In this document: positions 2-51,302 of the stretch, in pieces
How positions within the stretch are numbered: position 1 is the stretch's first letter
How the letters are laid out: every line of letters starts with the position of its first letter
Assembly (NCBI GenBank): GCA_964501355.1
Contig: CAZCSM010000003.1
Span: 1,660 to 65,659, forward strand
DNA length: 64,000 nt
Direction: 5' to 3'
DNA from: an uncultured Candidatus Saccharibacteria bacterium
Lineage (GTDB): Bacteria > Patescibacteriota > Dojkabacteria > CAZCSM01
The notes under the pieces: generated by a model
The model's input: the letters and a program-made list of their open reading frames with translations, nothing else
The model's database searches: none
Told to the model about the DNA's origin: nothing
Position numbers and translations under genes: made by a program

Positions 2-3000
2 CCTAGAAATACCGGCAAAGTGATTGACTCATCAGGTAATGGCAACCACGGAACAATTAATGGAGGTGCTAAATACACAGCAGGCAAAGTTCCTGCTTCA
101 AGTTATGCATCACATCAAGGTGTATTTATTGAAGAAGGAACAACTAACCTTGTCGATAATCCAAGTTTTGAAAATAATATAACTGATTTCTGGAGTGGAA
201 AAAGTGCAGTCACTGCTTATACTTCAGGAGCAACGGATGCAGATGGTAATGCCTATCTTGGAAACAACAATGTCAATGATGTTTACTTTTACGACACTGC
301 AAATGATTCCGATGCAGCGACTCAAGTAACACTTGGCGTAGATCCGAATTGGAGAAAGGGAGTTGTACTCAAAACAGGTACACTTAGTACTACTAACAAC
401 GGATCGTTGATTGAAGTAACAGGAACAAATGCAAATGGAAAAGGAATAGAGATTACAGTTACCTCAACTACAACATTTACCTGGAAAGAAGATGGCGGTG
501 CAGATTCAGCATCAACAGCAATGAGCAAGGGTAACTGGGTACAACTGGAAACTGGAGATAACGATATCTGGGTTAGATTTTCAAGCACGGGAACATTTAC
601 AACAAACGATGTATTTAGAATAAACAGTTGGGTAATAGAACCATTCTCAGCAACAAGAGGATATAGACGAGATTTTCCTGAGCAAAGTTATCTAGTCGCA
701 ACCGATTCAACGCTCGATATTATTGATGCGGTAGAGGATAAGTTGTGGATGAGGTTTATTCAATCGGGGTCGTTGAAAATGATTGCAGCCTTTGGTGGTA
801 CAATGCCTAACTCTACTTTTTCCCTAAATGGAATGCTGTATCTGGGAACCAAAGCTCCAATACCCACGACATTTGGATATTTACATAATGTTGATTTAGT
901 AAATGATTATGGTAAGCATACATGCAGTAGTACTGATGGAGGGCAAAGACTTTTTAAAGGAAATGTTGCTACACGTAATCAGGATTTAGATGCGACAATT
1001 ATAAATGTTTATCATCTTGTAGATAGAAGAGTTAATGATGTCCACGCTGTTGTGATCAACAGTAAGCAATATGTGGCGGTGGCAACGGATGGTGGGGTGA
1101 GTGTAATTAATGAGACGGATGGAAGTGTGGCGCATTTTTATGATTCAGACTGGAATGCACCCCGAACACACTATGTCTGGCTAACCTCTGGAGGAGAACT
1201 CTATTTTACAAGTGGTTCTTATGCAGTTACATATACTGATGCAAGGTATTTGCTTAGAATTGACGATATAAACACTAAAAGTACGAATACTGATCTCTTT
1301 GGAACATATTCTGGAATTTATAATGCTACATATGAGAATGGCGTACGTTATGATCCCGACAAATTTCCAGATATAGATGCAATTTACAGTGCAGTATACC
1401 CATCATATTCAACTTATAGAGGTGAGCTTTATTTAAACAATTTCCCGATTTTGGATATATTTGTCACCGAGGGGACTTCCTCCGTTGATAATTCTTCAAA
1501 CTCAATCTATGTTGCAGGAACAAGATCCTTAACGATTGCAAATGAAAAACAAGGCGATGAATCTAATGGTTCTGTTAAATACTACACCAAAGACGAAATT
1601 ACCGAAGAACTTATCGGCGATATCCGCGGAGCGTGGGGATTTAATACTAATGCCACTCTAGCCAATGGAGATACGGTGGCGGATGTGAGTGTGCGAGGGG
1701 CGGATATGACCGCGGTTGCAGATGCAGGCGGAATCGGAGTGATGAATGGCGTTCGAGGCAAGGCTTTTCAATTTGACGGAACGAATGATTATCTGACACA
1801 GAAAGTTTATGAAGATCAAACCGGTGCTAGCTGGGGACCGGCTAACCATGGACTGAGTTTGGCTAATGGACAAGCTTTCGCGAGAGTGCAGGGAGTAACG
1901 CTAGCGCCTTTTGCAGAAGCGGCCAATCCATATATGTTAGTTGTCAAAGACCCCGAGGGTGATGTCGCTTGGGGGTATATTGATACTGCTGGAGGTGGAG
2001 AGACATTGGGGAATGAGTTGGTTATTGATGGAACCTTTGATTCATGGACTGATAATGAGCTGAATAATTGGGTAGAAGCAGTATCTGTTGATGCTGATCC
2101 AGAAACGATCTCACCATACGGAGGAACCGGAACGTCTGTTAAGTTAGTTCTCTCTGGTAATAATCAATCGCTTAGTCAAAACTTAAGTGTTTCCGCAGGA
2201 AAGCTATACAAAATTACTTTCGCATATAAAGGAAATTATGTTAAATATCATGTAAAAGATCTTACAAACAATGTTTTTATCAAGAGTTGGACTGAAAATA
2301 ACCCCTCGAATTCTATTGACTGGTCTTTATATTCAGCATATTTTACAGTACCCTCAACCTGTACAAGTATTTCAATAGGTGTTTGGGGAACCTATTTAGG
2401 CGATACCGTTTATTTTGACAATGTGTCTGTCAAAGAAGTAACTGATACTGCTACTGATGGCGTCAAAATAATGTCTACCAAAGGTGGTTCAACCCAATCT
2501 TGGGCGGGGATTTCTGCATCTTTCAACTACAACGCCTCGTCATATACATTTGAAGTAAGGAAAACAGATTTTCAGATAACGGGAGATTTGACGGTGGGAG
2601 CATGGGTAAAAAATAATCAATCCAATACAGTTGAAAAGGGCGTTATTTCAAGAGGCACAGGAGGGACTGGTCCCTTTATACTTTTTGGAGGAACCGGAAG
2701 TAATAGTGCCTATCTTAGAATTCATACCGTTGGTGGTAGAGCTGATTCCCCCAAAACATTTTTACCTGTAAATGAGTGGGCATATCTGGTTGGAACCTAT
2801 GATGGAAATACCGTACGTCTATATTTGAATGGTACTGAACAAGGCACAGGTACAATAAAAGCAAGTGCCATTTTAGATTTAAATGATAACTTACTTATTG
2901 GAGCTTATGGCGTTGGAAGTGATAAGATTTCCGGCACCATCGATGAGCCCTTTATCACAGCCGAAGCCTTAACAGCAGATCAGATCAAAAACATGTTTGA

Positions 3001-6000
3001 CCAAGGCTGCCGAGCGATGGGAGGAACTCCGGGAACGGGAACTTGTACAGGAATTAATGAAGCTAGCACCACGAACTACATCGGCGGATCGACAAATATT
3101 ACAAATGCAGTATCAGTAAATTCTGCAGGAACCAGAGCTTTAATCGGCACAGATGGTGCCACCGGAGCGATTTCACTTCTGGATCTCACAGGAGATAAGA
3201 TAATCAAATCCTTCACCACCGCAACCACGCCGGCACTAGTAAATAACGACACCACAGCACTGGCAGTAGTCAGATGGGATGATACAAACCCACAATTTAT
3301 CGCAGGAAGCGAAACTGCAGGAGTGAGTGTAATTAATAATGATTTGACAGTTGAAACTCAAAATACAAGCACGGCGTATTCTAGATTTGGGACCGATTCA
3401 CTTAAGATTGACAATAGCGTTTCCGCTACAAACACATTATACAAATTTACAAAAACACTCACCGCTGCAAGCTACACCTTTAGCTTTTATGCATATACCG
3501 ACGGAAACCAAGTAACAAGTGCAGATTTAGTTCCATATTTAAATAGCGGAGAAATTTTAACCAATGTAACTTACGAAGACGCCGGCGGAGGTTTTACCAG
3601 AGTTTACGGAACATTCAGAGGCTTTGCATCAGCAAATATTTTCGGAGTAAAAGTGAAAGCCGGAAAAACGGTCTACATCGACGGAATACAACTTGAAGCT
3701 AAAGCCTATGCAACAACATATGCGGATGGAAGTTTGGGGACGGGGTATAGTTGGAGTGGGACGGAGAATAATAGTAATAGTGTGAGAACAAATTCGGATT
3801 TGTCCTATCTAAACAGCTTAAACATAGATTCCCAAAAAGGTTCTATGTCGTTTTGGTACAAACCAGATTTCAGTGCAGCTAATCCAAAGGCCGATTATAA
3901 TGCTGTTCCTATTATTACCGTCCAGAACACTGATGGACAAGTACTTTTACATGTATCTTTCAGGGGAGCAAACTTTGTATTTCAAAGGTATTCACAAGAA
4001 GGCTATAAACATACATCAAGTGCTGTTCAAACTTTTGACAAAAACGATTGGTTGCACCTCGTTATAAACTGGGGACCAGGGAATCAAACATTATATGTTT
4101 CGAATGCATCGTTTTTGGGTTATCCTTCAGAAACTTGGACTGTATCTGACATTTCTAATAAAAATATAATGATTGGTACCAGTCATTATTTTGGTTCAAC
4201 CAGAGCAAAAGCTGCCATCTCCGACTTTAGAATCTATGATCAACCTTTAACCCCAGCCGAAGTATCAGACATCTACTACCAAGGCCTGCAAAGCCACGGA
4301 ATCACAGAAACAAAAGGAAGATTTGACGGGATCACAGATGCTTCATACTACTCAGGACGAATAGATTTAAACGCAGTTTCAGCTTGGAGTGAGACAGATG
4401 ATCTAACCATAGCCTCAGCACTAAACGGAGGAACAATTAACTACTACACCTGCACAAAGAATCTAATCACAGGAGTATGTGCAGAAGAAGATTTCTTACC
4501 AATAGTAGGAAATGAAATACAATCCGATCCCGCAAGATACATGTTCGTCAAAGGAGTATTCAACTCAGCAGATAGCTACACAACTCCAACACTAACAGGA
4601 ATCACATTTAACTACGCACCGGATAACGATGCACCAACAAATCCAACAGAGATACACGCATACTCAACAAGTACAAAAGAGACAGAATACAACGAGGTAG
4701 ACTATGCTAACTCAAACAGACCATACTTCGAGTGGCCACAAGCGGAAGAAGTAGGAGGAGCAAGTGATACGGGAGAAGGATCAAGTGGAGTAAACGGATA
4801 CTATGTATACTTCGGAGAAGATGATACAGCTACTCCACAAACAGCAGGAACATACCAAATCGAGTCTGAAGAAGGAAACAACCACTACCAATTACCGGTA
4901 GACGATGCTCTAACAACAAAAGGAAACTACTACCTACGAATCCAATCAATGGATAACGCAGGAAGTATACAGTCTACAGTATGGGAGGCCTACACATACC
5001 AATATGATAATGAAGAACCAAACAACCCATCAGGAGTAAGTGTAACCCCAGCAGGATGGAGTAAGGTAAACTCATATGAATTCTACTGGCCGACAGGAGC
5101 AGATGATGACTCACAGCTTTGGGGATACTGCTACAAGACAGGAGACCCAGAAGTAGAAGAAGTATGTATAGAAGATAACTCAGTACAAAACATACAAGCA
5201 TATCAAGCAGGAGAGAATATCTTCTACTTAAGAAGTATGGATAATGCAGGAAACAAGAATACTAACTTTATCCAGACAACATACTACTACAATGCAGATG
5301 CACCAAGTTCTCCTAACAACCTAGATGTAACACCAGATACAAGTGATGAGAATGAATTCACTTTTACATGGGATGCACCATCTGACTTTAACGGAGAGAT
5401 AAAGGGATACTACTACAGTATCAATACAGAACCAACAATAGACAACAGTATCTTCACAACAGAAACACAAGTAGGTCCAGGTCCATATGCAACCAGACAA
5501 GGAGAGAACAAATTCTACGTACTCGCTGAAGATACAGCCGGAAACAAGAACTTCGATATTTACTCAGAAGTATCCTTCTATGCAAATACAACCGCTCCCG
5601 GGATTCCAACAAATTTAACAGTAAACGATTCATCAGATAGAAATACAAATACATATTCTTTAACATTAAACTGGAAAGCACCAACAGATACAACTCCGGA
5701 TCATTACAACATATATAGATCTTCAGATAACGAAACATTTACAGCAATTTCAACAACAACTTCGTTAGGACTTTTAGACCTTGGACTTTCGACGGATTTA
5801 ACGTACTACTACTACATCACAGCCGAAGATAGTGCAGGAGCAGAGTCAGGACACAGCCAGACAGTAAGCAAGAAACCATCAGGTAAGTTCACAACACCAC
5901 CAACAATTACAGTCAATCCTACCGCTACAGCAGGAAGAACAAGTTCAGTAATCACATGGGAAACAGATAGGGAGTCAAACAGCTTCGTACAAATAGGGAC

Positions 6001-7132
6001 ACAAGATGTATACACAAGAACACAGGGACAATGGATAACGTCTAAACAACATAGCGTAGAACTCAAAGGACTAAACCCTGCAACAGTTTATCACTACAGA
6101 GTACAAAGTATAGATGATCCTGAACTAATCGATTACGATTCAAACGAAGCATTCAGTCAAGATTATACATTTACAACAGGAGAAATACCGAAGATTAAAG
6201 ACCTTGAAGTAAAAGAAGTAAGACACTCATCAGCCATAGTAACATGGGGAACAGATGTAACATCTACCTCAGTAGTATACCTAACAGGAGGAGAAGAAAG
6301 AACAATAGAAGATCAATCATCAGGAGGAACAACAACACATACCATACTAGTAGATAACCTAAGTGCAGGAACAAGCTACAACGTGAGAGTATCAGGAACA
6401 GATGAAGAGGGTAATACACTAATAGGAGAGGAACACTCATTTACAACCCCTGCATATCCTAAAGTTAGCGAAGTTCGACTAGAACAACAGAAGGAAGAAG
6501 CAGAAGGAACAGTAAAGGTAACATGGATAACAAATGTGCCAACAACAAGTGTAGTTAAGTACAACAAGAAGGGAGAGACAGAAACGGTAGAAACAAGTAA
6601 TTCAGAACTAGTAACAGAACATGAAATGATAGCAAGTGGATTGCAAGACAATAGCGAATATGAAATACTAGTAGAAGGAAGAGATGGATATGGAAACTTA
6701 GCACAGTCAGAAGTAAATACATTCCTAACAGATGTAGACACAAGACCACCGAAGATAGAGAACGTACTGATTGAGACAGGACTGATAGGAAGTGGAACGA
6801 AAGCAAAAGCACAGATCATAGTGAGCTGGGAGACAGATGAGTTATCATCAAGCCAGGTAGAATATGATATAGGGATAGGTGAGACAGACGGTACAGTAAC
6901 GTATGCACAAAAGACGAAGGAAGATAACGGACTGGTAAACAAACATGTAGTAGTAATCTCAGAGCTATCACCAAGTCAGGTGTATAGAGTAAGACTACTA
7001 TCAAAAGATAAGAGTGGAAACGAGACATATTCAGATAACAACATCGTAGTAACAGACGAAGCCACAGAGAATGCACTGGAACTTGTAATGAACTCTCTGC
7101 TTGAAACCTTCGGATGGTTGTTCGGTGAATAG
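2..7132 (+). CDS. Giant secreted/surface protein, 5'-truncated at the window edge. It is a repeat-rich beta-domain protein whose regions look like LamG/concanavalin-like lectin and fibronectin-III modules.
   Basis: A single 7.1-kb ORF (2370 aa called from GTG at 20) remains open in frame back to nt 2. The composition is Thr/Ser/Gly/Asn-rich. Repeated ~90-aa modules carry the pattern 'W..P....Y.Y...A.D.AGN', typical of FN3-like repeats in large adhesins. LamG-like blocks ('FDGTNDYL', 'SFWYKPD', 'LYLNGTEQG') are present. Confidence 0.7.
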   Translation, partial: PRNTGKVIDSSGNGNHGTINGGAKYTAGKVPASSYASHQGVFIEEGTTNLVDNPSFENNITDFWSGKSAVTAYTSGATDADGNAYLGNNNVNDVYFYDTANDSDAATQVTLGVDPNWRKGVVLKTGTLSTTNNGSLIEVTGTNANGKGIEITVTSTTTFTWKEDGGADSASTAMSKGNWVQLETGDNDIWVRFSSTGTFTTNDVFRINSWVIEPFSATRGYRRDFPEQSYLVATDSTLDIIDAVEDKLWMRFIQSGSLKMIAAFGGTMPNSTFSLNGMLYLGTKAPIPTTFGYLHNVDLVNDYGKHTCSSTDGGQRLFKGNVATRNQDLDATIINVYHLVDRRVNDVHAVVINSKQYVAVATDGGVSVINETDGSVAHFYDSDWNAPRTHYVWLTSGGELYFTSGSYAVTYTDARYLLRIDDINTKSTNTDLFGTYSGIYNATYENGVRYDPDKFPDIDAIYSAVYPSYSTYRGELYLNNFPILDIFVTEGTSSVDNSSNSIYVAGTRSLTIANEKQGDESNGSVKYYTKDEITEELIGDIRGAWGFNTNATLANGDTVADVSVRGADMTAVADAGGIGVMNGVRGKAFQFDGTNDYLTQKVYEDQTGASWGPANHGLSLANGQAFARVQGVTLAPFAEAANPYMLVVKDPEGDVAWGYIDTAGGGETLGNELVIDGTFDSWTDNELNNWVEAVSVDADPETISPYGGTGTSVKLVLSGNNQSLSQNLSVSAGKLYKITFAYKGNYVKYHVKDLTNNVFIKSWTENNPSNSIDWSLYSAYFTVPSTCTSISIGVWGTYLGDTVYFDNVSVKEVTDTATDGVKIMSTKGGSTQSWAGISASFNYNASSYTFEVRKTDFQITGDLTVGAWVKNNQSNTVEKGVISRGTGGTGPFILFGGTGSNSAYLRIHTVGGRADSPKTFLPVNEWAYLVGTYDGNTVRLYLNGTEQGTGTIKASAILDLNDNLLIGAYGVGSDKISGTIDEPFITAEALTADQIKNMFDQGCRAMGGTPGTGTCTGINEASTTNYIGGSTNITNAVSVNSAGTRALIGTDGATGAISLLDLTGDKIIKSFTTATTPALVNNDTTALAVVRWDDTNPQFIAGSETAGVSVINNDLTVETQNTSTAYSRFGTDSLKIDNSVSATNTLYKFTKTLTAASYTFSFYAYTDGNQVTSADLVPYLNSGEILTNVTYEDAGGGFTRVYGTFRGFASANIFGVKVKAGKTVYIDGIQLEAKAYATTYADGSLGTGYSWSGTENNSNSVRTNSDLSYLNSLNIDSQKGSMSFWYKPDFSAANPKADYNAVPIITVQNTDGQVLLHVSFRGANFVFQRYSQEGYKHTSSAVQTFDKNDWLHLVINWGPGNQTLYVSNASFLGYPSETWTVSDISNKNIMIGTSHYFGSTRAKAAISDFRIYDQPLTPAEVSDIYYQGLQSHGITETKGRFDGITDASYYSGRIDLNAVSAWSETDDLTIASALNGGTINYYTCTKNLITGVCAEEDFLPIVGNEIQSDPARYMFVKGVFNSADSYTTPTLTGITFNYAPDNDAPTNPTEIHAYSTSTKETEYNEVDYANSNRPYFEWPQAEEVGGASDTGEGSSGVNGYYVYFGEDDTATPQTAGTYQIESEEGNNHYQLPVDDALTTKGNYYLRIQSMDNAGSIQSTVWEAYTYQYDNEEPNNPSGVSVTPAGWSKVNSYEFYWPTGADDDSQLWGYCYKTGDPEVEEVCIEDNSVQNIQAYQAGENIFYLRSMDNAGNKNTNFIQTTYYYNADAPSSPNNLDVTPDTSDENEFTFTWDAPSDFNGEIKGYYYSINTEPTIDNSIFTTETQVGPGPYATRQGENKFYVLAEDTAGNKNFDIYSEVSFYANTTAPGIPTNLTVNDSSDRNTNTYSLTLNWKAPTDTTPDHYNIYRSSDNETFTAISTTTSLGLLDLGLSTDLTYYYYITAEDSAGAESGHSQTVSKKPSGKFTTPPTITVNPTATAGRTSSVITWETDRESNSFVQIGTQDVYTRTQGQWITSKQHSVELKGLNPATVYHYRVQSIDDPELIDYDSNEAFSQDYTFTTGEIPKIKDLEVKEVRHSSAIVTWGTDVTSTSVVYLTGGEERTIEDQSSGGTTTHTILVDNLSAGTSYNVRVSGTDEEGNTLIGEEHSFTTPAYPKVSEVRLEQQKEEAEGTVKVTWITNVPTTSVVKYNKKGETETVETSNSELVTEHEMIASGLQDNSEYEILVEGRDGYGNLAQSEVNTFLTDVDTRPPKIENVLIETGLIGSGTKAKAQIIVSWETDELSSSQVEYDIGIGETDGTVTYAQKTKEDNGLVNKHVVVISELSPSQVYRVRLLSKDKSGNETYSDNNIVVTDEATENALELVMNSLLETFGWLFGE

Positions 7133-14055: not shown

Positions 14056-14619
14056 TTACATCTCTACTATCTGGAACAGTACTTGCCCCTTTACTGTTTC
14101 TGTATCAAGTACATCAGCTGTTACAGAAAGTTTGATATCTTCTGCCTGGTATGGATCAAGACTGATTGCGAAATAGTCTTGATTAGGTTTCTTCGAGAAG
14201 CTATACAACTCAAATGTTCCACCGTCGACGAGCATCCTGACTTCCAATTCGTTCATATTCGGATTAGTAACGGTCTTTGGTGTTATTCGTAAAGAAATTC
14301 GATCGTTCGTCTTATTTGTTAATTTGAAAAGATCATAGGTTACAGTTGCCTCCGAATATGCCGTGAATTCAATTTCCTGCTGGTCAAGATATCTTCCATC
14401 AAAAGTTCCTGATTGATCCCTAACAACAAGATCCATTCCATAATTTATTAATGGAGTTTTTGAATATGTTTCATTTTGTGTTGTTGCACCTTTAACTTCA
14501 ACCGTTTGTTCCTTTGGTGTCGGTGCAATCAATCCTACATAAATTAGTGTCCCAAAACTGACCACAGCTACAATTACTGCTAAGCTGTACGGGTGGAATA
14601 GGTTAAACTTTTTCTCCAT
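14056..14619 (-). CDS. Small membrane-anchored extracellular beta-rich protein, the last gene of the surface cluster
   Basis: N-terminal TM helix 'LAVIVAVVSFGTLIYVGLI' followed by a Thr/Val-rich domain. It overlaps the upstream gene by 17 nt. Confidence 0.6.
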   Translation of the reverse strand: MEKKFNLFHPYSLAVIVAVVSFGTLIYVGLIAPTPKEQTVEVKGATTQNETYSKTPLINYGMDLVVRDQSGTFDGRYLDQQEIEFTAYSEATVTYDLFKLTNKTNDRISLRITPKTVTNPNMNELEVRMLVDGGTFELYSFSKKPNQDYFAISLDPYQAEDIKLSVTADVLDTETVKGQVLFQIVEM

Positions 14620-15637
14620 TTGTTTCTTCTGTATCTAATTTATTTATGTTTGGCAGTTTTGATTTTACTTCTGGCTCTTTCTCGATCTTTACCTTTTTAA
14701 GCTCTGTTTTTTTCTTATCTTTATTATATCCGACAATTATTAACAGAATCACAACCACTAGTACTGCGATAACGACTTTCCAAGGAATTACCCAGAAATA
14801 GACTTCTGAACTTAGAGGTAAATCGTCAACACCATAAGCAAGTTCAACTTCTGCCTTATAGATGCCAAATCTCCAAGTTCCTTTCCATTCTGTTTCCCAA
14901 AGTCTAACTGCGGTAGGAAAGATGTTTGCCGGTTTTATAATCCATTCTGCGACTTCATTTCCCAAAGTGTTTTTTATTGTTACCGTTCCGCTTACTGGAA
15001 TATGGGTATTCCCATCATTTAGTATTTTCAATGTAAGAGGAATTGGGCCATATTCTGAAAAGAATGGTGCGGAGAACTCAGTAATTTCTGCAGACTCTTT
15101 AATATCACCTGATACAGTTAGTTTAACATAGGTTCCAAGCTTGTGTTCTACAAGAGGACCTACAACTTCTTCCTCGACTATTACCGGTGTAAATAGAATG
15201 CTTGTATAATGTCCTCCTGGTGTAGCGTCTTGTGGAATATCAATTGTAAAAGGAACATCTTTTGATTCGTTTGGTTCCAATAAAAATTCTTGGTACTCTT
15301 CTGCGACACCAATCCATTTGCTCATTGACCAAATGGATGAACCGGATTCAACAAATGTAGGAACACCGCTCTCAGACTCAACAATGAAGTCGAATAATTC
15401 GGTTTTAATTTTTAGTGTTTCTTCACTTAAGTTTGTAACTTTTGTCGTGCTATTCAGTGTGTCACCAGGATTACCATATAGATCAACACTCAAGTTGCCG
15501 GTTTCATCCGCTGAGCCACTCACAACGATTTTGCTCTCTTCGGTCCCACCTGTTTGTGCATAGGCTGGAATTGCAAATCCAAGAAGTAAAGTGGAAGCAA
15601 CTAATATTTTTGGCAGTGTTTTGTTCATTGTTTTCAT
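14603..15637 (-). CDS. Cell-surface protein with an N-terminal signal peptide and a C-terminal TM anchor plus Lys-rich tail (DUF916/DUF3324-like architecture)
   Basis: Signal peptide 'LLLGFAIPAYAQ', C-terminal 'VIAVLVVVILLIIVGYNKDKKK'. It is paralogous to the C-terminal half of the 16815-18140 product (block 'GTVTIKN.LGNEV' versus 'GTIKIRDRKGDIV'). Confidence 0.6.
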   Translation of the reverse strand: MKTMNKTLPKILVASTLLLGFAIPAYAQTGGTEESKIVVSGSADETGNLSVDLYGNPGDTLNSTTKVTNLSEETLKIKTELFDFIVESESGVPTFVESGSSIWSMSKWIGVAEEYQEFLLEPNESKDVPFTIDIPQDATPGGHYTSILFTPVIVEEEVVGPLVEHKLGTYVKLTVSGDIKESAEITEFSAPFFSEYGPIPLTLKILNDGNTHIPVSGTVTIKNTLGNEVAEWIIKPANIFPTAVRLWETEWKGTWRFGIYKAEVELAYGVDDLPLSSEVYFWVIPWKVVIAVLVVVILLIIVGYNKDKKKTELKKVKIEKEPEVKSKLPNINKLDTEETNGEKV

Positions 15638-15651
15638 TAATTATGCAATAT

Positions 15652-16752
15652 CTAGAAAATTGGTGTTGACACGTAAGTAATAGTTGTTCCAGAATAGTTT
15701 CCTGTTGGTTGTGAGGTATTTACTTCAATTTGATAAGTGATTGTTGTTGCCTCTGCTGTAACTGGTCCGTTATTATATGCGACTTCATAAGCCGTGCTTG
15801 TGCTCCAAGCTGCATATGTATCTGCTAATGAAAACCTCGTAGTTGTTCCTGTTCCAAGAACTCCGTCATTCGTATGATAACCCAGATATCCAGTGTTTGT
15901 ATTTGGTGTTATGCTTACCGGTGCTGCCCAAGCTGTTGGCGCTGCATTAGTTCCTGTAAACCAGTCAATATCATTTGCCCCTGAAGTTAACTGTGCATCT
16001 GCGATGGTTGTAGTTGTATATCCACCAGTTGCATTGGTTGAAATGGTTAGTGTTTGTGTGCAAGTCTCTGCTGTACCTGGAATTATTGACGCAAAATCAA
16101 CACTTGTTGCAGTTACTGTTCCGCTATCACAGGAACCTCCAGCAATTGCAAAAGATAGGGTTGTATCGATTTGAGCTGTAATTGTAACTCCAGAGACAAT
16201 TCCGACTCTCATGTTAATTGAATCATATACCGGTGAACCTCCTCCATCTGTTGTAGTTACTGCAACTGTACAGATATTCGAATCATTTCCTGCTCCGCAA
16301 ACTGCACCGGAAGGATTTTCAACTTTGTTTGTATCTCCGATGGTTACTCTTATCCATGTTGTTGCAGCAATATCTGTAGCTCCAAGAGGGATTGTTACAT
16401 TAGGTGATGAAACTACAATCGTTCCTGCCGTGTAAGAGGCCCAACTTGGAGTACCTCCAGTTCCGCCAGTTTCTACCGTAACATCTGTATTTGCAAGGGA
16501 ATTAAAAGTGAAATCGGCTTCGAATGCGAATCGGATCTCATCGTTACCTCCACCACCGGTTCCAGATAATGCTGTTGGGTTTCTGAAGACAAATGTGTGA
16601 ATTGCATCTGTTGACGGAAGAGATGTTTCCAATGTATCGCTTGCGCTCGTCAACGAATCAGATAACACTCTTTGTGGTAGAGAAACAAGTAGCAATAATG
16701 CTATTGTAACAATCACTAAACTCGTTCTGATATTTTTATTAAAAACTTTCAC
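15652..16752 (-). CDS. Secreted Thr/Gly-rich beta-protein with a WxL-like/pilin-like C-terminal strand
   Basis: Signal peptide, then a Thr/Gly/Ala-rich low-complexity beta region. It ends '...PTGNYSGTTITYVSTPIF', a motif shared with the 245-aa protein. Confidence 0.55.
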   Translation of the reverse strand: MKVFNKNIRTSLVIVTIALLLLVSLPQRVLSDSLTSASDTLETSLPSTDAIHTFVFRNPTALSGTGGGGNDEIRFAFEADFTFNSLANTDVTVETGGTGGTPSWASYTAGTIVVSSPNVTIPLGATDIAATTWIRVTIGDTNKVENPSGAVCGAGNDSNICTVAVTTTDGGGSPVYDSINMRVGIVSGVTITAQIDTTLSFAIAGGSCDSGTVTATSVDFASIIPGTAETCTQTLTISTNATGGYTTTTIADAQLTSGANDIDWFTGTNAAPTAWAAPVSITPNTNTGYLGYHTNDGVLGTGTTTRFSLADTYAAWSTSTAYEVAYNNGPVTAEATTITYQIEVNTSQPTGNYSGTTITYVSTPIF

Positions 16753-16814
16753 GATGATTATTCGTCAATATATATAAATTCTTATACTCATTAAATTGTC
16801 TTTTGCCAATCTTG

Positions 16815-18140
16815 TCAAGTCCCTTGCGATCTTTTTGTCCTCCGAATCGCAATAATAGTTATAGAACAAAGACAAACTAGAACTACAAGAGAGTTTATTA
16901 TCAATTTAATAGGAATGACATAAAATGATATTGAACTATTTAAGCCAACGGTGCCATCTTCACTTTTTACTTCTATCTCTGCATTATATTTCCCAAACAG
17001 ATACTTAAATTCCCATGAAGGAGAATCTTCTTGACTCTCCAATCGCCTTATTGTTCCGGGAAGAACAGTTGTTTTATCAAGAACAATCGTATCAACAATA
17101 TCACCTTTTCGATCTCTAATTTTTATCGTCCCATAAGCATTGTAGTGTAGTGTTCCTGTATTATTCACTCTTGCTGTAAACTCAACCGGGGAAATAAAGT
17201 TCCAGTCGTTCTTTACAGAAAATTCAACAATTTGACCGCTCTTCACAAGTTCTCCAAGGATTTCTCCTGAGTGAACAAAGTTGATATAACTTAGTATTCC
17301 GATTTTTCCGGTAACAAAAGACCCTGAACCGACTGTTGTTGATGCGGTGGGTATTGGTTCAATAAAAATTACATAATAGTATTCACCTTGTGGCAAAGTC
17401 TTTTCACCGTAAAAGTTGGCCGTAATAATTTTTGATGAATTGGCTGGGATTTTGACGGTGGATTCACTGAAGATAATTTCAATTTCTTTCTTTTCTTTTT
17501 CAAGAAAGTTTAATTTTCCATATTCTCCCACGATCTCAAATTTTTCGTAATAAACAAGATATTCTTGATCCAGGTTATTTAAGTTATAAACTTTAATTTC
17601 TTCATTCTTCGTTTCTTCTGCAACCAAATCCATTTCAAATTTAATTGGGTCTACGCCAAGAGAAGTTTTATCTTGAGCGTGAATTGGATGAGGGAAGAGT
17701 ATAGATGCTAGAGATAATATGGACATGAATGGAATTAGAGTAGCTAGTAGTTGGTAGCTAGTAGTTGTGGACTTTCTGATGCTTGAGATAAGCGCATTTA
17801 TTAACTTGGCAATCTCAATGCTTGTATTGGCTAATTCTTTAAAGACGTCTCGTTTCATGTAATCCAAATCTTTTGCAATTATTAATTGGTTTTGAACTTC
17901 CGTTAATGAACTAACGGAGACTTGATAGAATTGGATCTTTTCCTTTCTCGACCTTCTCGAAAATCCTTCTGCCAAATTACTGGTTATTGAAACGGCGGCT
18001 CGTCGTATTTGTGAGGAAAGTCCATATAATTCTTCCTTTGGAAATTTGTTTGTAATGCTGTAAATATCTAAAACAAAAACATGTCCTTTTTGCCAGGCTA
18101 TTAAATCGGTAAAGTTTTTAATCTTCTTGTTGTCGTCCAT
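16815..18140 (-). CDS. Fusion ORF: an N-terminal Avd-like four-helix-bundle domain (TIGR02436 / 23S-rRNA-IVS protein family) joined in frame to a signal-peptide surface protein with a C-terminal TM anchor
   Basis: Residues 1-~120 'IAWQKGHVFVLDIYSITNKFPKEELYGLSSQIRRAAVSITSNLAEGF...' are a classic four-helix-bundle protein with a strong RBS (AGGAG N6 ATG at 18140). The remainder starts at an internal Met (~17736) with signal peptide 'MSILSLASILFPHPIHAQ' and ends with a TM plus 'RRTKRSQGT'. Imperfect direct repeats GTAGCTAGCAACTAG / CTAGCTACCAACTACTAGCTAC flank the bundle module. Confidence 0.6.
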   Translation of the reverse strand: MDDNKKIKNFTDLIAWQKGHVFVLDIYSITNKFPKEELYGLSSQIRRAAVSITSNLAEGFSRRSRKEKIQFYQVSVSSLTEVQNQLIIAKDLDYMKRDVFKELANTSIEIAKLINALISSIRKSTTTSYQLLATLIPFMSILSLASILFPHPIHAQDKTSLGVDPIKFEMDLVAEETKNEEIKVYNLNNLDQEYLVYYEKFEIVGEYGKLNFLEKEKKEIEIIFSESTVKIPANSSKIITANFYGEKTLPQGEYYYVIFIEPIPTASTTVGSGSFVTGKIGILSYINFVHSGEILGELVKSGQIVEFSVKNDWNFISPVEFTARVNNTGTLHYNAYGTIKIRDRKGDIVDTIVLDKTTVLPGTIRRLESQEDSPSWEFKYLFGKYNAEIEVKSEDGTVGLNSSISFYVIPIKLIINSLVVLVCLCSITIIAIRRTKRSQGT

Positions 18141-18177
18141 ATATTTCTCCTAGTTGCTAGCTACGAATTCCCATCTA

Positions 18178-18915
18178 CTAAAAAGTTGCTGTCAGAATGT
18201 AAACTATCGTATTTTCATATGTTCCTGCCGGCTGAATATCGTCAACATTTACCTGATAAGTTACTCTAGTTGAAGCCCCTGTTTCTGGTGTACTTCCATT
18301 TTTGCTCATAATCTCTTGTGGAATTTCAGAGAAACTATAGTCTGCAAATTCCCTGTAACCTGAGGTAAGTGTTGCGTCTGTTCCTGTCAGATTTTCAACA
18401 GTAAATCCGAAACCGAACTCTGTATCATAATCTGTCCAAGAACCTTCGGTACTTTCTGTAATTGAATTGAATGGCAGGTCATCACCATTTGCTGCTCCGT
18501 ACGGAACCTTTTGCGTTCCGGTGACGTTCTTCAATTTGAAAGGTGTCGTTTCATATGTAGTTACTTTGTATCCTTCGGGACTATTTGTAATGACGGTAAT
18601 GTCAGAGCTTCCTGTTGCGGGTGTTCTCGGTGTCAGTGTTCCGAAGTCGACGACAGTATTTGAGATCGTGAAAGATAGGGGAATAAGGTCATAATACATG
18701 ACTCCTGACTGTATTATGAAATTATCACTTACAATTTCTCCTGAGGTTGTTTGACCCAATGCATCATTAACTTTGTAGTTATCTGATTCTTTTTCTTGCC
18801 CCATTTGATCAATTGTGTCGTTTTCGACATCAAGGCTTTGCGCAAATGTAAATACGGGGAACATGATTATTCCTGCGAATATGGTGAAGATGATGAATTT
18901 GCGAAAAGCTCTCAC
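18178..18915 (-). CDS. Secreted beta-protein with a WxL-like/pilin-like C-terminal strand, the first gene of the surface cluster
   Basis: Signal peptide 'IIFTIFAGIIMFPVFTFAQ', C-terminal 'PAGTYENTIVYILTATF'. Confidence 0.55.
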   Translation of the reverse strand: MRAFRKFIIFTIFAGIIMFPVFTFAQSLDVENDTIDQMGQEKESDNYKVNDALGQTTSGEIVSDNFIIQSGVMYYDLIPLSFTISNTVVDFGTLTPRTPATGSSDITVITNSPEGYKVTTYETTPFKLKNVTGTQKVPYGAANGDDLPFNSITESTEGSWTDYDTEFGFGFTVENLTGTDATLTSGYREFADYSFSEIPQEIMSKNGSTPETGASTRVTYQVNVDDIQPAGTYENTIVYILTATF

Positions 18916-23101: not shown

Positions 23102-24031
23102 ATGAAAATTCAGAAACGTGATATTTTAATCTTTTCTATCGGTGTGCTCATTACCTTAGCATTTTCTCCATTCTTCAAATCTCTCGTTTCCGCGGAGCAA
23201 TCCGGCACTACTCCAAATAGCGGAGCAACATCATACATCAAACAACTTTACGATTCGCTGGTATCACTAGGCAATGGTTCTGATTCATCGGGATCATGGG
23301 GAGATTGGGGAGGGATGTGGAATAGGATTCGCTCATCTTCGGAATGGGTGCCAAGCGGAGATGCAACTGCGGGAGATGTGGTGGCGGGGAAGATGTTTTA
23401 TGGCAATTCAAGAACGCAGATGATTGGGACTGGTCCAGAACCGATAGATTTTTCACTTTTTCAGTACAGTGCCAGAGACGATTACGCAGGTGCATACTAT
23501 ACAGGACTTGGACCTGAAGACTATCAGGGCGAGGAAGCGGAATGGACAGATCATAGTGTTGATGCTGATGTGGTCTGGAAAGATGAACGGGCAGGTATGT
23601 ACTGGACCGCTGACAGAGGAATTCTGACTGCGAATAATTTCACAATGGCAACCTGTCAATTTTTCACATCAGAGCCTAGATCGAGTTATGACGGGAGCGA
23701 CTTGACATGTGGGGGGACAGCAGAAGAACCTCATGCGATAAACTACTGTGCTACACTAGATTATGGAGGAAGAACCGACTGGTATCTACCATCTCAGAAG
23801 GAGCTAATGATGGCATACATAGATGGTATGTACAATCAGGCAGGAGCTACACCAGCAGAAGCAGCAGCATTTACGTATGGCACTTCAGGAGGTGGTGGTT
23901 ATCGGTTCTGGTCGTCTTCCGAGGTGTCTAACAATCCAACAAACGCTTGGACCGTAAACATGAGCATCGGCAACACGAACTACACCATTAAGACGAATGC
24001 GCTCGCCGTTAGGTGTGTAGCGAGGGACTGA
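23102..24031 (+). CDS. DGR target protein: a secreted/membrane-anchored DUF1566 (Lcl-like C-type-lectin fold) protein with a C-terminal variable region
   Basis: N-terminal signal/TM segment. 'CATLDYGGRTDWYLPSQKEL' is the DUF1566 hallmark. The C-terminus '...YRFWSSSEVSNNPTNAWTVNMSIGNTNYTIKTNALAVRCVARD' is the VR, matched by the TR at 24361-24483. Confidence 0.85.
   Translation: MKIQKRDILIFSIGVLITLAFSPFFKSLVSAEQSGTTPNSGATSYIKQLYDSLVSLGNGSDSSGSWGDWGGMWNRIRSSSEWVPSGDATAGDVVAGKMFYGNSRTQMIGTGPEPIDFSLFQYSARDDYAGAYYTGLGPEDYQGEEAEWTDHSVDADVVWKDERAGMYWTADRGILTANNFTMATCQFFTSEPRSSYDGSDLTCGGTAEEPHAINYCATLDYGGRTDWYLPSQKELMMAYIDGMYNQAGATPAEAAAFTYGTSGGGGYRFWSSSEVSNNPTNAWTVNMSIGNTNYTIKTNALAVRCVARD
23906..24028 (+). 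other. DGR variable region (VR)
   Basis: 123 bp aligning with the TR. The 5' 45 bp are identical. The 3' part shows 11 substitutions, 10 of them at TR adenines (AAC->ACC/AGC/ATC/TAC/CTC, AAT->ATT, ACA->ACG, GCA->GCG). It ends GTTAGGTGTGTAGCGAGGGAC. Confidence 0.85.
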
Positions 24032-24065
24032 TGATTAGAATTTAATAATTTCTTATTTAAAATTT

Positions 24066-24091
24066 ATCATCCGATCTTTAGATCGGATGAT
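24066..24091 (+). promoter_or_regulatory. Perfect stem-loop 38 bp downstream of the VR (ATCATCCGATC-TTTA-GATCGGATGAT)
   Basis: 11-bp perfect stem with a 4-nt loop. Its position matches the DNA hairpin/cruciform that enhances homing in characterised DGRs. Confidence 0.6.
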
Positions 24092-24360
24092 TTGCGACAA
24101 AAAACTACTATATTGAAAAAACTAGTAAAGTGGTGTAGATTATTGTCGCGTGGATTCTATAGTTACAACTTCATCGTAAGCTCTGAGCTATAGGGAAGGC
24201 CCGATTTTCAGTCCGTTCCACTGCACCTGATTTTTTCAGGTATTATTATTCAGTGAGACTTTTTCGCTGAAATGCGAATCAGTCTTATGGTGGATTCTGT
24301 GTTAGACAAGATTCTAATGTCTTGTCTTGCAGAATAAAGTCAGTGGGAAATAGCGTTGTG

Positions 24361-24483
24361 TTCTGGTCGTCTTCCGAGGTGTCTAACAATCCAACAAACG
24401 CTTGGAACGTAAACTTGAACAACGGCAACACGAACAACAACAATAAGACAAATGCAAACGCCGTTAGGTGTGTAGCGAGGGAC
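24361..24483 (+). other. DGR template repeat (TR), adenine-rich (AAC-codon rich)
   Basis: TTCTGGTCGTCTTCCGAGGTGTCTAACAATCCAACAAACGCTTGGAACGTAAACTTGAACAACGGCAACACGAACAACAACAATAAGACAAATGCAAACGCCGTTAGGTGTGTAGCGAGGGAC, in the same orientation as the VR (plus strand). Confidence 0.85.
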
Positions 24484-24497
24484 TTATCATCGGGCTT

Positions 24498-24857
24498 TTA
24501 CGCAGTCTGGTTCTCCGACCACTTGATCCATCCGTTAAGCATTTTAGCGATTTCCTCATTTTGGGATATTATGTAAGCATACTGTTGGGAAGCGATAAGT
24601 TTCAACTCATGTGCCATACGCAGTCGTGATTTCAACCTGTCAAACGAAGCAGAAGCTTGACGAATAATTCCAGCCTTTTGAGTGTTTTGGCGAGTATTCG
24701 TAGCAATTATTTTATCAAGAGTTTCCCATGCACAGTCAATTATTGATTGACCAAGCGTGTACTTATATTCTTTTTTGAAATTCCTGACAAGTAGATACAA
24801 ATATTTCAAAAGTTTGTATGTGGCTACATACAGAGGAAGTTCGTCTAATTTGCTCAT
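24498..24857 (-). CDS. avd: DGR accessory variability determinant (Avd)
   Basis: 119-aa basic helical protein immediately downstream of and 4-bp overlapping the RT. Size and position are typical of Avd. Its 3' end abuts the TR. Confidence 0.75.
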   Translation of the reverse strand: MSKLDELPLYVATYKLLKYLYLLVRNFKKEYKYTLGQSIIDCAWETLDKIIATNTRQNTQKAGIIRQASASFDRLKSRLRMAHELKLIASQQYAYIISQNEEIAKMLNGWIKWSENQTA

Positions 24858-26056
24858 TTTTGTTTTGCAACTAAAGTAAAATATGAATAATTGTCATCAA
24901 TTGGCACTAAGTACTCTTTCAAAGTTCCAAAATGATTTTCATACAGATCTCTACGAAGATTGAAGCAGTTCGCATGTTTAAAATGTCCGTAGTACGAATT
25001 AACCATAGCTAGCATCTTTCTTAACTCTTGCTTTGTTGGGGGTGTAGACAACGGTAATACCATCTGTTTTTGATTTTGCGAAACAAGCAGTTTCCCCTGA
25101 TTGAAGTAATGAAGCTTCGTTTTGAGATTTTGCACCACACGTTTTCTTGCCAGAGTATATTTAGGCTTAACTATATAACCAATAAAATCTATTCCTGAAT
25201 AAACTGAATTGTATTTATCCTTATTTGGGTGAAGTATCAATTGTAAATTTTTCTGTAGAAAAGTGTTTATCTTTTTCCTCCACTGTTTTATCTTATTCAT
25301 ATCATTTGAAATAACGACAAAATCATCAACATACCGTATGTAGTGCTTGATTTTCAACTCACGTTTTACGTACTGATCAAGCTCATTCAAGTATACGTTA
25401 GCAAAAAATTGTGATGTTAAATTTCCTATTGGAAGTCCTTTGTCTTTCCCAGCTTTAAAAAGCGTTTTGTGAGGCGGTATCTGTTTTAGAAGAGATCTAT
25501 CACCTTTGAAGAAAAAATTATCGGTAGGATTATGGTTAAGAATAATTTCTGTGAGCCAGATCAGGTCATCCTTTCTATGTTTTGGAAAATGATTTTCTAT
25601 CTCACTGATGATGATTTCTTTTAGAATATTTTTATCAATCGAAGTAAAAAAGCTTCTGACATCAAACTGCCCATAAAACGCTTTTTTGCTGTAATTTCCT
25701 GTTACGGATCGAATAGCTTTCTTGAGACAGGTTATGGCAGTCAGAAGCCCTTTGTTTTTCCTGCATGCAAAAGAAGAATAGATGAACCGTTTTTCAAAAT
25801 GAGGCTCAAGGTGTGATACAAGCAGATGATGGATAATCCTATCTCTAAAATCGGCGGCAAACACCTCTCTGATCTTCGGATATGTAACCACAAAACAGAT
25901 AGACTTGCCAGGTCTGTACGTTCTGTTTTTCAGTTCTTCAAAAAGCTTCAGGATACTGGATTCAAAATTCATCTCAAACTTAAGAGAGTTAATGGTATTT
26001 CGTTTGTTCTTTCTGCAGGAAAGGTAAGCTTTTAATAAATCTTTTAGTGTAAACAT
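24854..26056 (-). CDS. DGR reverse transcriptase
   Basis: RT motifs 'PKIREVFAADFRDRIIHHLL' and 'YVDDFVV' (YxDD). The DGR-specific 'LPIGNLTSQFFANVYLNELD' (I/LGxxxSQ) replaces the QGxxxSP of other RTs. Confidence 0.9.
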   Translation of the reverse strand: MFTLKDLLKAYLSCRKNKRNTINSLKFEMNFESSILKLFEELKNRTYRPGKSICFVVTYPKIREVFAADFRDRIIHHLLVSHLEPHFEKRFIYSSFACRKNKGLLTAITCLKKAIRSVTGNYSKKAFYGQFDVRSFFTSIDKNILKEIIISEIENHFPKHRKDDLIWLTEIILNHNPTDNFFFKGDRSLLKQIPPHKTLFKAGKDKGLPIGNLTSQFFANVYLNELDQYVKRELKIKHYIRYVDDFVVISNDMNKIKQWRKKINTFLQKNLQLILHPNKDKYNSVYSGIDFIGYIVKPKYTLARKRVVQNLKTKLHYFNQGKLLVSQNQKQMVLPLSTPPTKQELRKMLAMVNSYYGHFKHANCFNLRRDLYENHFGTLKEYLVPIDDNYSYFTLVAKQK

Positions 26057-35925: not shown

Positions 35926-36015
35926 TGGCGGAGAGGACAGGATTTGAACCTGCGGTAGCGGTTATGCTACACAGTCTTTCCAGGACTGCCAATTAAGCCA
36001 CTCTTGCACCTCTCC
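35926..36015 (-). tRNA. tRNA-Ser (anticodon GGA), type II with a long variable arm and encoded CCA
   Basis: Reverse complement GGAGAGGTGCAAGAGTGGCTTAATTGGCAGTCCTGGAAAGACTGTGTAGCATAACCGCTACCGCAGGTTCAAATCCTGTCCTCTCCGCCA. The anticodon loop is CTGGAAA, the T-arm is GGTTCAAATCC, and the acceptor stem is 7 bp. Confidence 0.85.
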
Positions 36016-50909: not shown

Positions 50910-50954
50910 AACCGAAGTTATTCGATAAGCCGAATTTTGTATTCATCAACAAAG

Positions 50955-51247
50955 ATGAACGATGATCATCTATCTAAGCTGCCTACTCTTTGGCATTGCT
51001 CTAGATGGGGGTTACAATGCGTACGTCATTACTGACAATACCGGTGGTCTCTTACACCGCCTTTTCACCCTTACTTATCTTTCGATAAGCGGTATATTTT
51101 CTGTGGCCCTTTTCTCCGTGAGATTGCTCCCACCCAACTTTCGTTGGCATCACGACCTTCGATTTTGCTGGAGGACTTGTCCTGAGCTTGTCGAAGGAGA
51201 GTCCGGACTTTCCTCAGTGCTTGCGCACCGCGATCATCTGAATAACT
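50955..51247 (-). ncRNA. rnpB: RNase P RNA (bacterial type, reduced)
   Basis: The minus strand reads ...CAGATGATCGCGGTGCGCAAGCACTGAGGAAAGTCCGGACTCTCC... (P4 5' strand GGAAAGUCCGG) and ...AGTAAGGGTGAAAAGGCGGTGTAAGAGACCACC... (consensus GGGUGAAAnGGUGcGGUAAGAGCGCACC). It ends with GGCAGCTTAGATAGATGATCATC, closing P1 with the 5' GATGATC. TATAAT lies at 51255-51260 on the minus strand. Confidence 0.8.
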
Positions 51248-51302
51248 TACGGTGCTATTATAGCATTTTTTGTGATGTAGGGACAGAGTATTACTCTGTC
51301 CC

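Follow-up and report, generated by a model that had tools for sequence, protein, structure and literature searches.

The DNA considered here, referred to as the window, is a stretch of 64,000 nucleotides from contig CAZCSM010000003.1 of an uncultured Candidatus Saccharibacteria bacterium. This study concerns an open reading frame (ORF) on its minus strand, at 16815..18140, in which a four-helix-bundle (4HB) protein of the family known from 23S rRNA intervening sequences (IVSs) is joined to a secreted chaperone of a pilus operon. An earlier reading of the same DNA, the first-pass annotation, had reported a 441-aa ORF without a stop, and the sequence does contain one uninterrupted, stop-free frame of 441 codons with its start codon at 18140.

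The N-terminal module of this ORF is a full protein of the TIGR02436/PF05635 (23S rRNA IVS) family. The 4HB domain occupies residues 12-121 (17778..18107, minus strand) and matches PF05635 at 124.7 bits (cutoff 33.8, E 2e-36, model positions 2-106 of 106) and TIGR02436 at 118.8 bits (cutoff 24, E 1e-34, model positions 2-108 of 109). Both models are matched at full length and above their curated cutoffs, which confirms the family assignment made at first reading. PDB entry 2GSC resembles the 4HB part in sequence (E 3e-17), and AlphaFold2 places its helices at residues 14-30, 35-61, 65-91 and 97-135 with pLDDT values of 94-98. According to an alignment of 50 sequences, E37, S51 and N55 are invariant in the family, and R47, E58 and G59 are nearly so. 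Ahead of the domain lies a leader (18141..18156, minus strand) with its own ribosome-binding site, GGAG at 18150..18147, 6 nt 5′ of the ATG at 18140, as the first-pass annotation had also stated. Scans of the 441-aa protein against Pfam and NCBIfam (E up to 0.1) returned 4HB families only and no intein or Hint domain, and Rfam at gathering thresholds found no intron family in the window; these scans thus gave no sign of a self-splicing intron or an intein. Promoter and terminator scans of the 4HB-bearing segment, termed the cassette below, gave nothing above chance, and PADLOC gave no meaningful defence-system match for the 4HB.

The protein family, its Avd-like fold and the IVS elements of rRNA genes are already known. 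The family is very large, is not known to have a function, and has received differing interpretations. One search returned 1,779 close relatives of the 4HB. Identity among the 120 best relatives of the type found in the Candidate Phyla Radiation (CPR) is 57-66%, and none of these 120 proteins is longer than 160 aa.

The remainder of the ORF encodes a PapD-like chaperone. The mature chaperone, with a C-terminal membrane helix, a basic tail and the stop codon, occupies 16815..17675 on the minus strand, as delimited by AlphaFold2 and Foldseek. The AlphaFold model of the whole 441-aa protein, built on a 90-sequence alignment, has a mean pLDDT of 91.4 and shows in order the helix bundle (14-135), a segment modelled with low confidence (135-160), a pair of beta-sandwich domains (161-262 and 280-408) and a terminal helix (411-439). 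Foldseek searches of the PDB with the beta part retrieved WxLIP 9i1y, CsuC 6fqa, CfaA 4y2o, FimC, Caf1M and PapD with E values of 1e-9 to 4e-12. Between the two parts lies the signal peptide of the host gene, now internal, at residues 135-155 (LIPFMSILSLASILFPHPIHA; 17676..17738, minus strand), recognized by its hydrophobicity, its -3/-1 residues and the low pLDDT of 135-160. The predicted signal-peptidase site is IHA|QD, with the cut after IHA155, and the basic residues R122 and K123 lie on the cytoplasmic side of the hydrophobic segment. The internal methionine at which the first-pass annotation had placed the signal peptide, at about 17736, does exist ahead of a stretch resembling a signal peptide, but it is Met139, at 17726..17724, within residues 135-155.

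The most fitting name for the host gene is a PamC/PamD-like chaperone of a candidate Pam-type pilus operon, because its fold and architecture match a preprint description and its neighbours match PamT and pilin models below their cutoffs. In that preprint, PamC and PamD are described as chaperones of the PapD type that carry a signal peptide and end in a membrane helix (bioRxiv 10.64898/2026.03.03.709456). AlphaFold2, Foldseek and the hydrophobic segments indicate the same architecture of signal peptide, two PapD/FimC-like beta domains and membrane helix in the host part, which is shared also with Firmicutes WxL-interacting proteins (9i1y). The host part is in an operon with candidate PamT-like and pilin-like genes, which match their models below threshold only, and the N-terminal 4HB has no counterpart in the described system. 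The upstream gene (18178..18915, minus strand) is a PamT-like tip-pilin candidate with sub-cutoff matches to CPR_pilus_PamT (E 7e-13) and CPR_Pam_pilin_C (E 5e-11), and it is syntenic in loci L001, L003, L004, L016 and L020. The rest of the operon (14056..16752, minus strand) consists of a pilin-like gene at 15652..16752 (CPR_Pam_pilin_C, E 9e-6, sub-threshold), a second chaperone paralog at 14603..15637 (weak WxLIP_PGBD match, E 1e-4; paralogy by tblastn, E 8e-13) and a 187-aa gene without a match at 14056..14619. In NCBIfam scores, the operon neighbours reach 48.5 bits against a cutoff of 240 for CPR_pilus_PamT, and 42.9 and 25.8 bits against 55 for CPR_Pam_pilin_C; none of the NCBIfam Pam chaperone models was matched by the host part. 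The whole candidate Pam-type operon spans 14056..18915, and in L003 shorter genes seem to replace the pilin-like gene.

Comparison with orthologs distinguishes the two parts of the ORF. A profile of the mature chaperone part retrieved about 2,500 relatives, and match starts were examined for the 150 best-scoring ones. In these the match begins at residue 6-86, with one 802-aa exception, and most are 300-350 aa long; the offset of about 155 residues expected of a 4HB fusion occurs in none of them. Five close orthologs (P0003, P0005, P0006, P0127 and P0276) have no 4HB, and four lineages are fused, namely the window, P0002 (found in two samples), P0004 and P0275. Two scans of genome contigs and one of metagenome contigs yielded no further orthologs. 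Measured against its family, the host gene has thus acquired the 4HB module by insertion, because the five close orthologs and the best-scoring relatives are without it. The first-pass annotation had suggested checking whether orthologous surface-protein genes lack the 5′ module, and had named a module carried uniformly by orthologs as the refuting pattern; this pattern is seen in part, in the four fused lineages and not in the five unfused orthologs.

The orthologous loci without a cassette also show what the site looks like when empty. The chaperone ATG stands 2-3 nt past the upstream stop in four of the five unfused loci, for instance TGA AAA ATG AAG ATA CGT in L003 and TAA GA ATG GGA TTC in L011, and the spacer is 26 nt in L016. 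In the window, L004 and L001, a TAG TAG AT(G/A) is kept at the original start position, and the TAG TAG ATG GGA of the window agrees with the ATG GGA of L011. The segment 18157..18174 (minus strand), reading ATG GGA ATT CGT AGC TAG (MGIRS*), is on this comparison a putative relic of the stranded chaperone start. It comprises six codons in a frame other than that of the present ORF, and the TAG that ends it belongs to the arm of the cassette.

The cassette is bounded by repeats, the existence of which had been recognized at first reading, with coordinates that were off by 3-17 nt. The motif TAGCTAsCAACTAs occurs twice against an expectation of 0.04, and the repeats stand at 18164..18150 (GTAGCTAGCAACTAG) and 17761..17740 (CTAGCTACCAACTACTAGCTAC). 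Their units are 7 or 14 nt long with a CTAG core and are quasi-palindromic (GTAGCTAG/CTAGCTAC), so that they can be read as direct and inverted repeats alike. The 5′ arm (AGTAGATGGGAATTCGTAGCTAG; 18157..18179, minus strand) consists of 7/14-nt units with GTAG/CTAG cores, and was delimited by the inverted pair, by minimum free energy (MFE) and centroid folds and by a census of TAG frames; the TAG stop of the upstream PamT-like gene (18180..18178) adjoins it. The 3′ arm region (17727..17767, minus strand), recognized by tandem and inverted repeats and by the closing stem, contains two 14-nt units CAACTACTAGCTAC followed by TCTAATTCCATTC; it is translated in frame as ...TTSYQLLATLIPF with no stop inside. 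The inverted pair 18179..18157 / 17761..17739 is 23 nt long and 78% complementary, and it spans 441 nt between its outer ends. The MFE fold and the centroid fold both close the 461-nt cassette with GGAAUU.CGUAGCUAG / CUAGCUAC…AAUUCC. The GC content of the cassette (0.356) matches that of the host gene (0.341).

The repeats had been taken for a duplicated insertion site, and this does not hold: they are inverted arms carried by the element, since their units recur at an unrelated locus of another organism (L005) and form the closing stem of the fold. A target-site duplication was considered for the window, as the relic ATG comes into frame once the 403 bp separating the 14-nt repeats are deleted, with the result MGIRSYQLLATLIP…, similar to MKIRLSKVLLLALIP of L003. 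It was dropped on two grounds: the unit that encodes QLLAT is part of the element, occurring also in L005 and at the end of P0126, and the frame relation is different in L004 and L001. A short duplication would not show in a comparison of filled with empty orthologous sites, which have diverged too far.

L005, from a marine contig with the source label Peribacteraceae, is a 4HB gene that stands alone between lexA and dinB. Its arms carry the units of the window (GTAGCTAGGGGTTAGTAGCTAG … AACTACTAGCTAC), and GTAGCTAG…ACTACTAGCTAC units flank its 4HB gene. The ORF of L005 ends …RTTSY-TAG where the window reads …TTTSY-CAA-CTA-CTA-GCT. Given these arm units and the stop after RTTSY, the tail TTSYQLLAT of the window's 4HB is translated arm.

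The wider comparison draws on 11 cassettes: the window, the other fused loci, L005 and further loci from CPR bacteria, cyanobacteria and Bacteroidota. Seven further cassettes include those between a hypothetical and a LamininG protein gene, atpD and atpC, and def and fmt in CPR bacteria, and those on plasmids of Nostoc punctiforme, Picosynechococcus and Riemerella. In all of these, the 4HB gene follows a co-oriented gene, a downstream gene, where one is annotated, is likewise co-oriented behind a short spacer, and the flanks pair in the whole-cassette fold. All 11 cassettes examined have pairing arms and a co-oriented gene upstream, and they are usually found at operon junctions such as def|fmt, atpD|atpC, lexA|dinB and cmr2|cmr3. 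Units of 7 or 14 nt in tandem make up the arms. Stand-alone cassettes leave the downstream ATG intact, 0-10 nt past the 3′ arm, and the upstream stop falls within the 5′ arm or shortly ahead of it.

Arms were scored by local-alignment complementarity of the 5′ and 3′ flanks against 2,489 real control placements at equal spacing. All ten scored cassettes are in the top 3% of the controls, and eight of them exceed every control; the two weakest are the window, whose score is reached by 2.7% of placements (p 0.027), and L004 (1.7%). The arms of L001 pair over 22 nt at 95% and 38 nt at 82%, and those of L004 over 9/9 plus 21 nt at 76%. The eleventh cassette, L020, has 18 contiguous closing pairs plus eight more. 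RNA duplex energy of the flanks compared with shuffles, with large internal loops allowed, gave no discrimination for the window or L008.

The arms of the GTAG type (5′ arms of L005, L013, L015 and L008, and 18157..18180 in the window) carry a TAG every 7 nt or 3+4 nt. About three units of such an arm suffice to close any upstream frame, and often its first TAG is the upstream gene's own stop. Besides the GTAG-type arms, the outer arm of L001 shows this three-frame closure upstream of the 4HB start. In the window, TAG is likewise present in all three frames upstream of the 4HB start, which is how the relic ORF comes to its end. Three-frame TAG stops were rejected as a universal arm feature, since the TCAGGAG heptads of Nostoc are without them by inspection.

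Several of these loci hold further observations. On the Nostoc punctiforme plasmid pNPUN01 (L017), TCAGGAG/TCAGAAT repeated eight times (~1115..1185) faces CTCCTGA heptads (~1540..1580) near-perfectly. Short tandem heptanucleotide repeats have long been known from heterocystous cyanobacteria, and the arms of L017 resemble them. In the Yanofskybacteria loci L008-L010, a gene for an IS200/IS605-type Y1 transposase (PF01797; 5064..5384) lies about 2 kb from the 4HB cassette. On a plasmid of Picosynechococcus sp. PCC 7003 (NZ_CP016476.1; L018), a cassette with pairing arms at 1192..1548 stands between cas10/cmr2 and cmr3 of a type III-B CRISPR operon. In Pleurocapsa, 4HB copies in the same position between cas genes were interpreted as having a CRISPR/cas-associated function (PMC3936711), and the 4HB gene of L018 may be another operon-junction insertion.

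Among the closest known systems is the 23S rRNA IVS of Coxiella burnetii and Leptospira, the PF05635 (‘S23p’) ORF of which belongs to the same protein family. The Coxiella IVS is 428-444 nt long, with a 28-bp terminal stem cut by RNase III and the S23p ORF in the loop (PMC4990558). The window cassette is similar in size (441 nt arm to arm), in having terminal inverted repeats as a closing stem with the ORF in the loop, and presumably in being part of a host transcript. This stem-closed layout of about 430-450 nt is weak in the window and strong in eight of the ten scored cassettes and in L020. On the other hand, the window cassette is in a protein-coding operon rather than in helix 9, 25 or 45 of 23S rRNA, and since Rfam finds no rRNA in the window, it is not in a 23S or 16S rRNA gene. 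Its ORF has no stop and runs into the host gene. Moreover, fragmentation is harmless in rRNA, whereas in an mRNA it would part the host gene from its sole start.

Stand-alone TIGR02436 genes of CPR bacteria, cyanobacteria and Bacteroidota have arms of the same kind as the window, with GTAGCTAG/ACTACTAGCTAC units identical in L005, and like the window cassette they are co-oriented with the upstream gene and normally at operon junctions. They differ in having a stop of their own, within the 3′ arm or shortly ahead of it, and in leaving the downstream ATG in place; in the window, the host start is stranded and the ORFs are joined. Another parallel is offered by the Correia elements of Neisseria, miniature inverted-repeat elements that are co-transcribed with genes and cut by RNase III. 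These are also small elements with terminal inverted repeats and no recognizable transposase, situated inside transcription units. Unlike them, the window cassette carries a conserved protein gene, its arms are tandem 7/14-nt units instead of unique terminal repeats, and no target-site duplication could be shown for it.

The 4HB shares its fold with the Avd proteins of diversity-generating retroelements (DGRs), to which its sequence relationship is distant. The window contains a complete-looking DGR at 23102..26056, 6.4 kb from the cassette, consisting of a presumed target gene for an Lcl_C-domain protein (23102..24031, plus strand), a bAvd gene (24498..24857, minus strand; PF22296, 68 bits) and, directly beside it, the reverse transcriptase gene (24854..26056, minus strand). 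The first-pass annotation was right that a bona fide DGR Avd lies about 6 kb away and that this genome carries two Avd-fold proteins. The 4HB of the cassette is not itself a DGR Avd, as it scores below cutoff against PF22296 (28.8 bits vs 40) and NF033474 (26.3 vs 80) and has no adjoining reverse transcriptase, the nearest one being that of the DGR, which has its own bAvd. By tblastn, there is no detectable similarity between the 4HB and this bAvd. Elsewhere in the window are two very long ORFs, at 20..7132 (plus strand, 2,370 aa) and 59236..63810 (minus strand, 1,524 aa). The sole Rfam matches at gathering thresholds are a bacterial class A RNase P RNA (50910..51249, 167 bits) and a tRNA (35929..36015).

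The favoured, and probably correct, explanation is that a selfish IVS-type cassette of about 440 nt lodged within the first codons of the pilus chaperone gene, and that the chaperone is expressed as a read-through fusion. At the junctions of all four fused lineages, the fusion frame alone is open, and the other two frames hold one to six stops. From the 4HB to the predicted cleavage site, only the window offers an in-frame ATG, GTG or TTG, and none exists in L001, L004 or L020. Read-through fusion is the likely route of chaperone synthesis because an internal start codon is missing from three of the four lineages. In addition, the hydrophobic core and the -3/-1 motif (I-x-A, A-x-A, V-x-A and A-x-A) are equally good in fused and unfused orthologs. 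The fusion appears to be under selection, since four lineages are in frame and stop-free, three are without an internal start, and the signal peptide is kept at normal strength.

The steps of this process can be outlined as follows. The cassette, presumably transcribed from the promoter of its host, would normally occupy the short spacer between two co-oriented genes of an operon. In the pilus operon, where the spacer is 2-3 nt, a cassette that seeks junctions would land behind the ATG and cut the chaperone off from its start. Only copies that are in frame and free of stops would then leave the chaperone expressed, which fits all four fused loci. Translation would start at the ATG at 18140 and proceed through the 3′ arm (…TTSYQLLAT) and the retained signal peptide into the chaperone. 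The internal signal sequence (135-155) would act as an N-in signal-anchor with the 4HB on the cytoplasmic side, and a probable cut by signal peptidase after IHA would release a normal mature chaperone outside.

The first-pass annotation had argued that a fusion of this kind would prevent export. In established membrane-protein biology, a cytoplasmic domain at the N terminus with a hydrophobic signal-anchor behind it makes up an ordinary N-in topology. Because this arrangement is normal and R122 and K123 are on the cytoplasmic side, no block to export of the C-terminal part is to be expected, and the objection loses its force with a hydrophobic core and -3/-1 motif as good as those of unfused orthologs.

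Several points weigh against the read-through explanation. The stem of the window pairs weakly (78% complementarity in 23 nt, with a control p of about 0.03), and the overlap of the 5′ arm with the relic codons leaves some ambiguity as to where exactly the insertion took place. The cassettes examined were all chosen for their likeness to the window's 4HB, so that the claim to generality is based on 11 loci. Strong stems are kept in L001 (22 nt at 95%) and L020 (18 perfect bp), which is a poor fit with read-through: should RNase III cut the arms as it does in rRNA, the fusion mRNA would be broken apart. The window, alone of the four lineages, has an in-frame ATG (Met139) exactly at the 3′ foot of the stem, and internal or coupled re-initiation may operate in this genome. 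Signal-peptidase cleavage behind a folded domain of about 130 residues is assumed, and translation as a fusion is proposed from the sequence.

The strongest rival is nonetheless rather unlikely: two products would be made, the 4HB from its own start and the chaperone either from Met139 or, once translation of the PamT-like gene has terminated, through re-initiation across the hairpin foot, and RNase III cutting of the arms might first excise the 4HB mRNA. The Met139 codon (17726..17724) stands directly past the last paired base of the 3′ arm. In stand-alone cassettes, the stem brings the upstream stop and the downstream ATG together, given their positions next to the 3′ and 5′ arms, and stems of this type are cut by RNase III in rRNA (PMC4990558). 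Against this stand the three lineages L001, L004 and L020, in which there is no in-frame ATG, GTG or TTG to use. Even in the window, no Shine–Dalgarno sequence precedes Met139, and a start there would give a signal peptide of 17 residues without a charged n-region. Moreover, two separate products would leave the frame unselected, yet all four junctions are in frame and stop-free. The Met139 or stem-foot route is thus possible for the window alone and cannot be the shared solution, so that separate synthesis from an internal methionine, as first proposed, fails as a general answer.

The history of the fusion bears on a second rival, adaptive domain fusion, which is still less probable: the 4HB would have been recruited as a functional cytoplasmic domain that remains part of the chaperone, for example for regulation or oligomerization on the inner side of the membrane, and the signal sequence would serve as a permanent first transmembrane helix. 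Such a role would agree with the retention of the fusion in four diverged lineages, with a 4HB that is still a full-length, high-scoring family member, and with helix 4 of the AlphaFold2 model, which reaches residue 135, toward the hydrophobic segment. The chaperone parts of the four fused lineages share 42-69% identity, and as all of these diverged lineages carry an in-frame cassette, the insertion is not recent, contrary to one suggestion of the first-pass annotation. However, unfused sisters occur within the same subclades. The mature chaperones of the window and P0002 group with the unfused P0003 at 66-69% identity, that of P0275 groups with the unfused P0005 and P0006 at 60-64%, and that of P0004 stands apart at 46-50%. 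The arms and the cassette's own ribosome-binding site have been retained, and the AXA-type cleavage motif is conserved.

The 4HB parts tell a different history from the chaperone parts, which also speaks against recruitment. Their identity among the four fused lineages is 52-64%, and unrelated stand-alone 4HBs are as close (63-66%). The 4HB of the window is 62-64% identical to those of L004 and L020 and 53-56% to that of its close relative L001, which ranks last of the 122 family members compared with the window 4HB. The 4HB tree is poorly resolved, with about 60% identity even between unrelated members; its grouping departs from that of the chaperones, and three arm types exist among the fused lineages, which indicates that cassettes were gained or replaced more than once, rather than that a single domain was recruited. 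Two histories come into question: several invasions or re-supplies of the site, or an old cassette that was exchanged and lost time and again. In L001, a second cassette has left a stump (910..1000), 96 nt upstream of the intact one, which adds to the case against adaptive fusion. The stump consists of a copy of the 5′ arm, the leader and ATGACTTTTACAGATCTC… (MTFTDLELQKSFEL*), with the first 14 codons of another 4HB gene, and suggests a tandem or nested cassette followed by deletion.

Finally, a pseudogene disrupted by the insertion and covered by the paralog at 14603..15637, or a continuous frame produced by assembly error, would agree with the presence of a paralogous chaperone gene in the operon and with the lack of a match to the exact 441-aa product in a contig look-up, and is highly improbable, as the fused architecture occurs in independent assemblies from five samples of different projects, the chaperone part is intact over 286 residues (pLDDT 91) with family-invariant residues kept, and the frame is open in all four lineages with the alternative frames closed.

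Beyond the read-through fusion itself, a broader proposal is put forward tentatively, with more doubt than confidence. IVS elements may be one landing site of widespread mobile 4HB cassettes that home to stop-start junctions of co-transcribed genes, and junctions too short for them, like the one in this pilus operon, may lead to repeated in-frame capture and to removal of the leader by signal peptidase. As part of the same proposal, the class would be characterized by inverted arms of heptad repeats, often with a TAG per 7 nt that closes all three frames, and would be hosted by CPR bacteria, cyanobacteria and Bacteroidota. In the literature surveyed, which was covered incompletely so that an earlier description is possible, there was no account of heptad-armed 4HB cassettes at operon junctions across phyla, no 4HB-chaperone fusion or in-frame capture by a secreted protein, and no report of 4HB genes in Pam pilus operons.

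The evidence points to a simpler account of 4HB genes than a cas-associated function, in which they travel as cassettes bounded by hairpins and ride host operons. This account would explain the scattered, multi-copy distribution of these genes and would tie rRNA IVSs to general mobile-element biology. For annotation, it implies that such fusions should not be read as new domain architectures, and that operon-borne 4HB genes should not inherit the function of their neighbours. The pilus chaperone would represent a natural experiment, in which an essential secreted protein survived the loss of its start codon to a selfish insert, and the prediction is a precursor of about 50 kDa that is cleaved by signal peptidase to a normal chaperone. 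If this is true, removal of the leader by signal peptidase would be a protein-level counterpart of splicing out a selfish insert.

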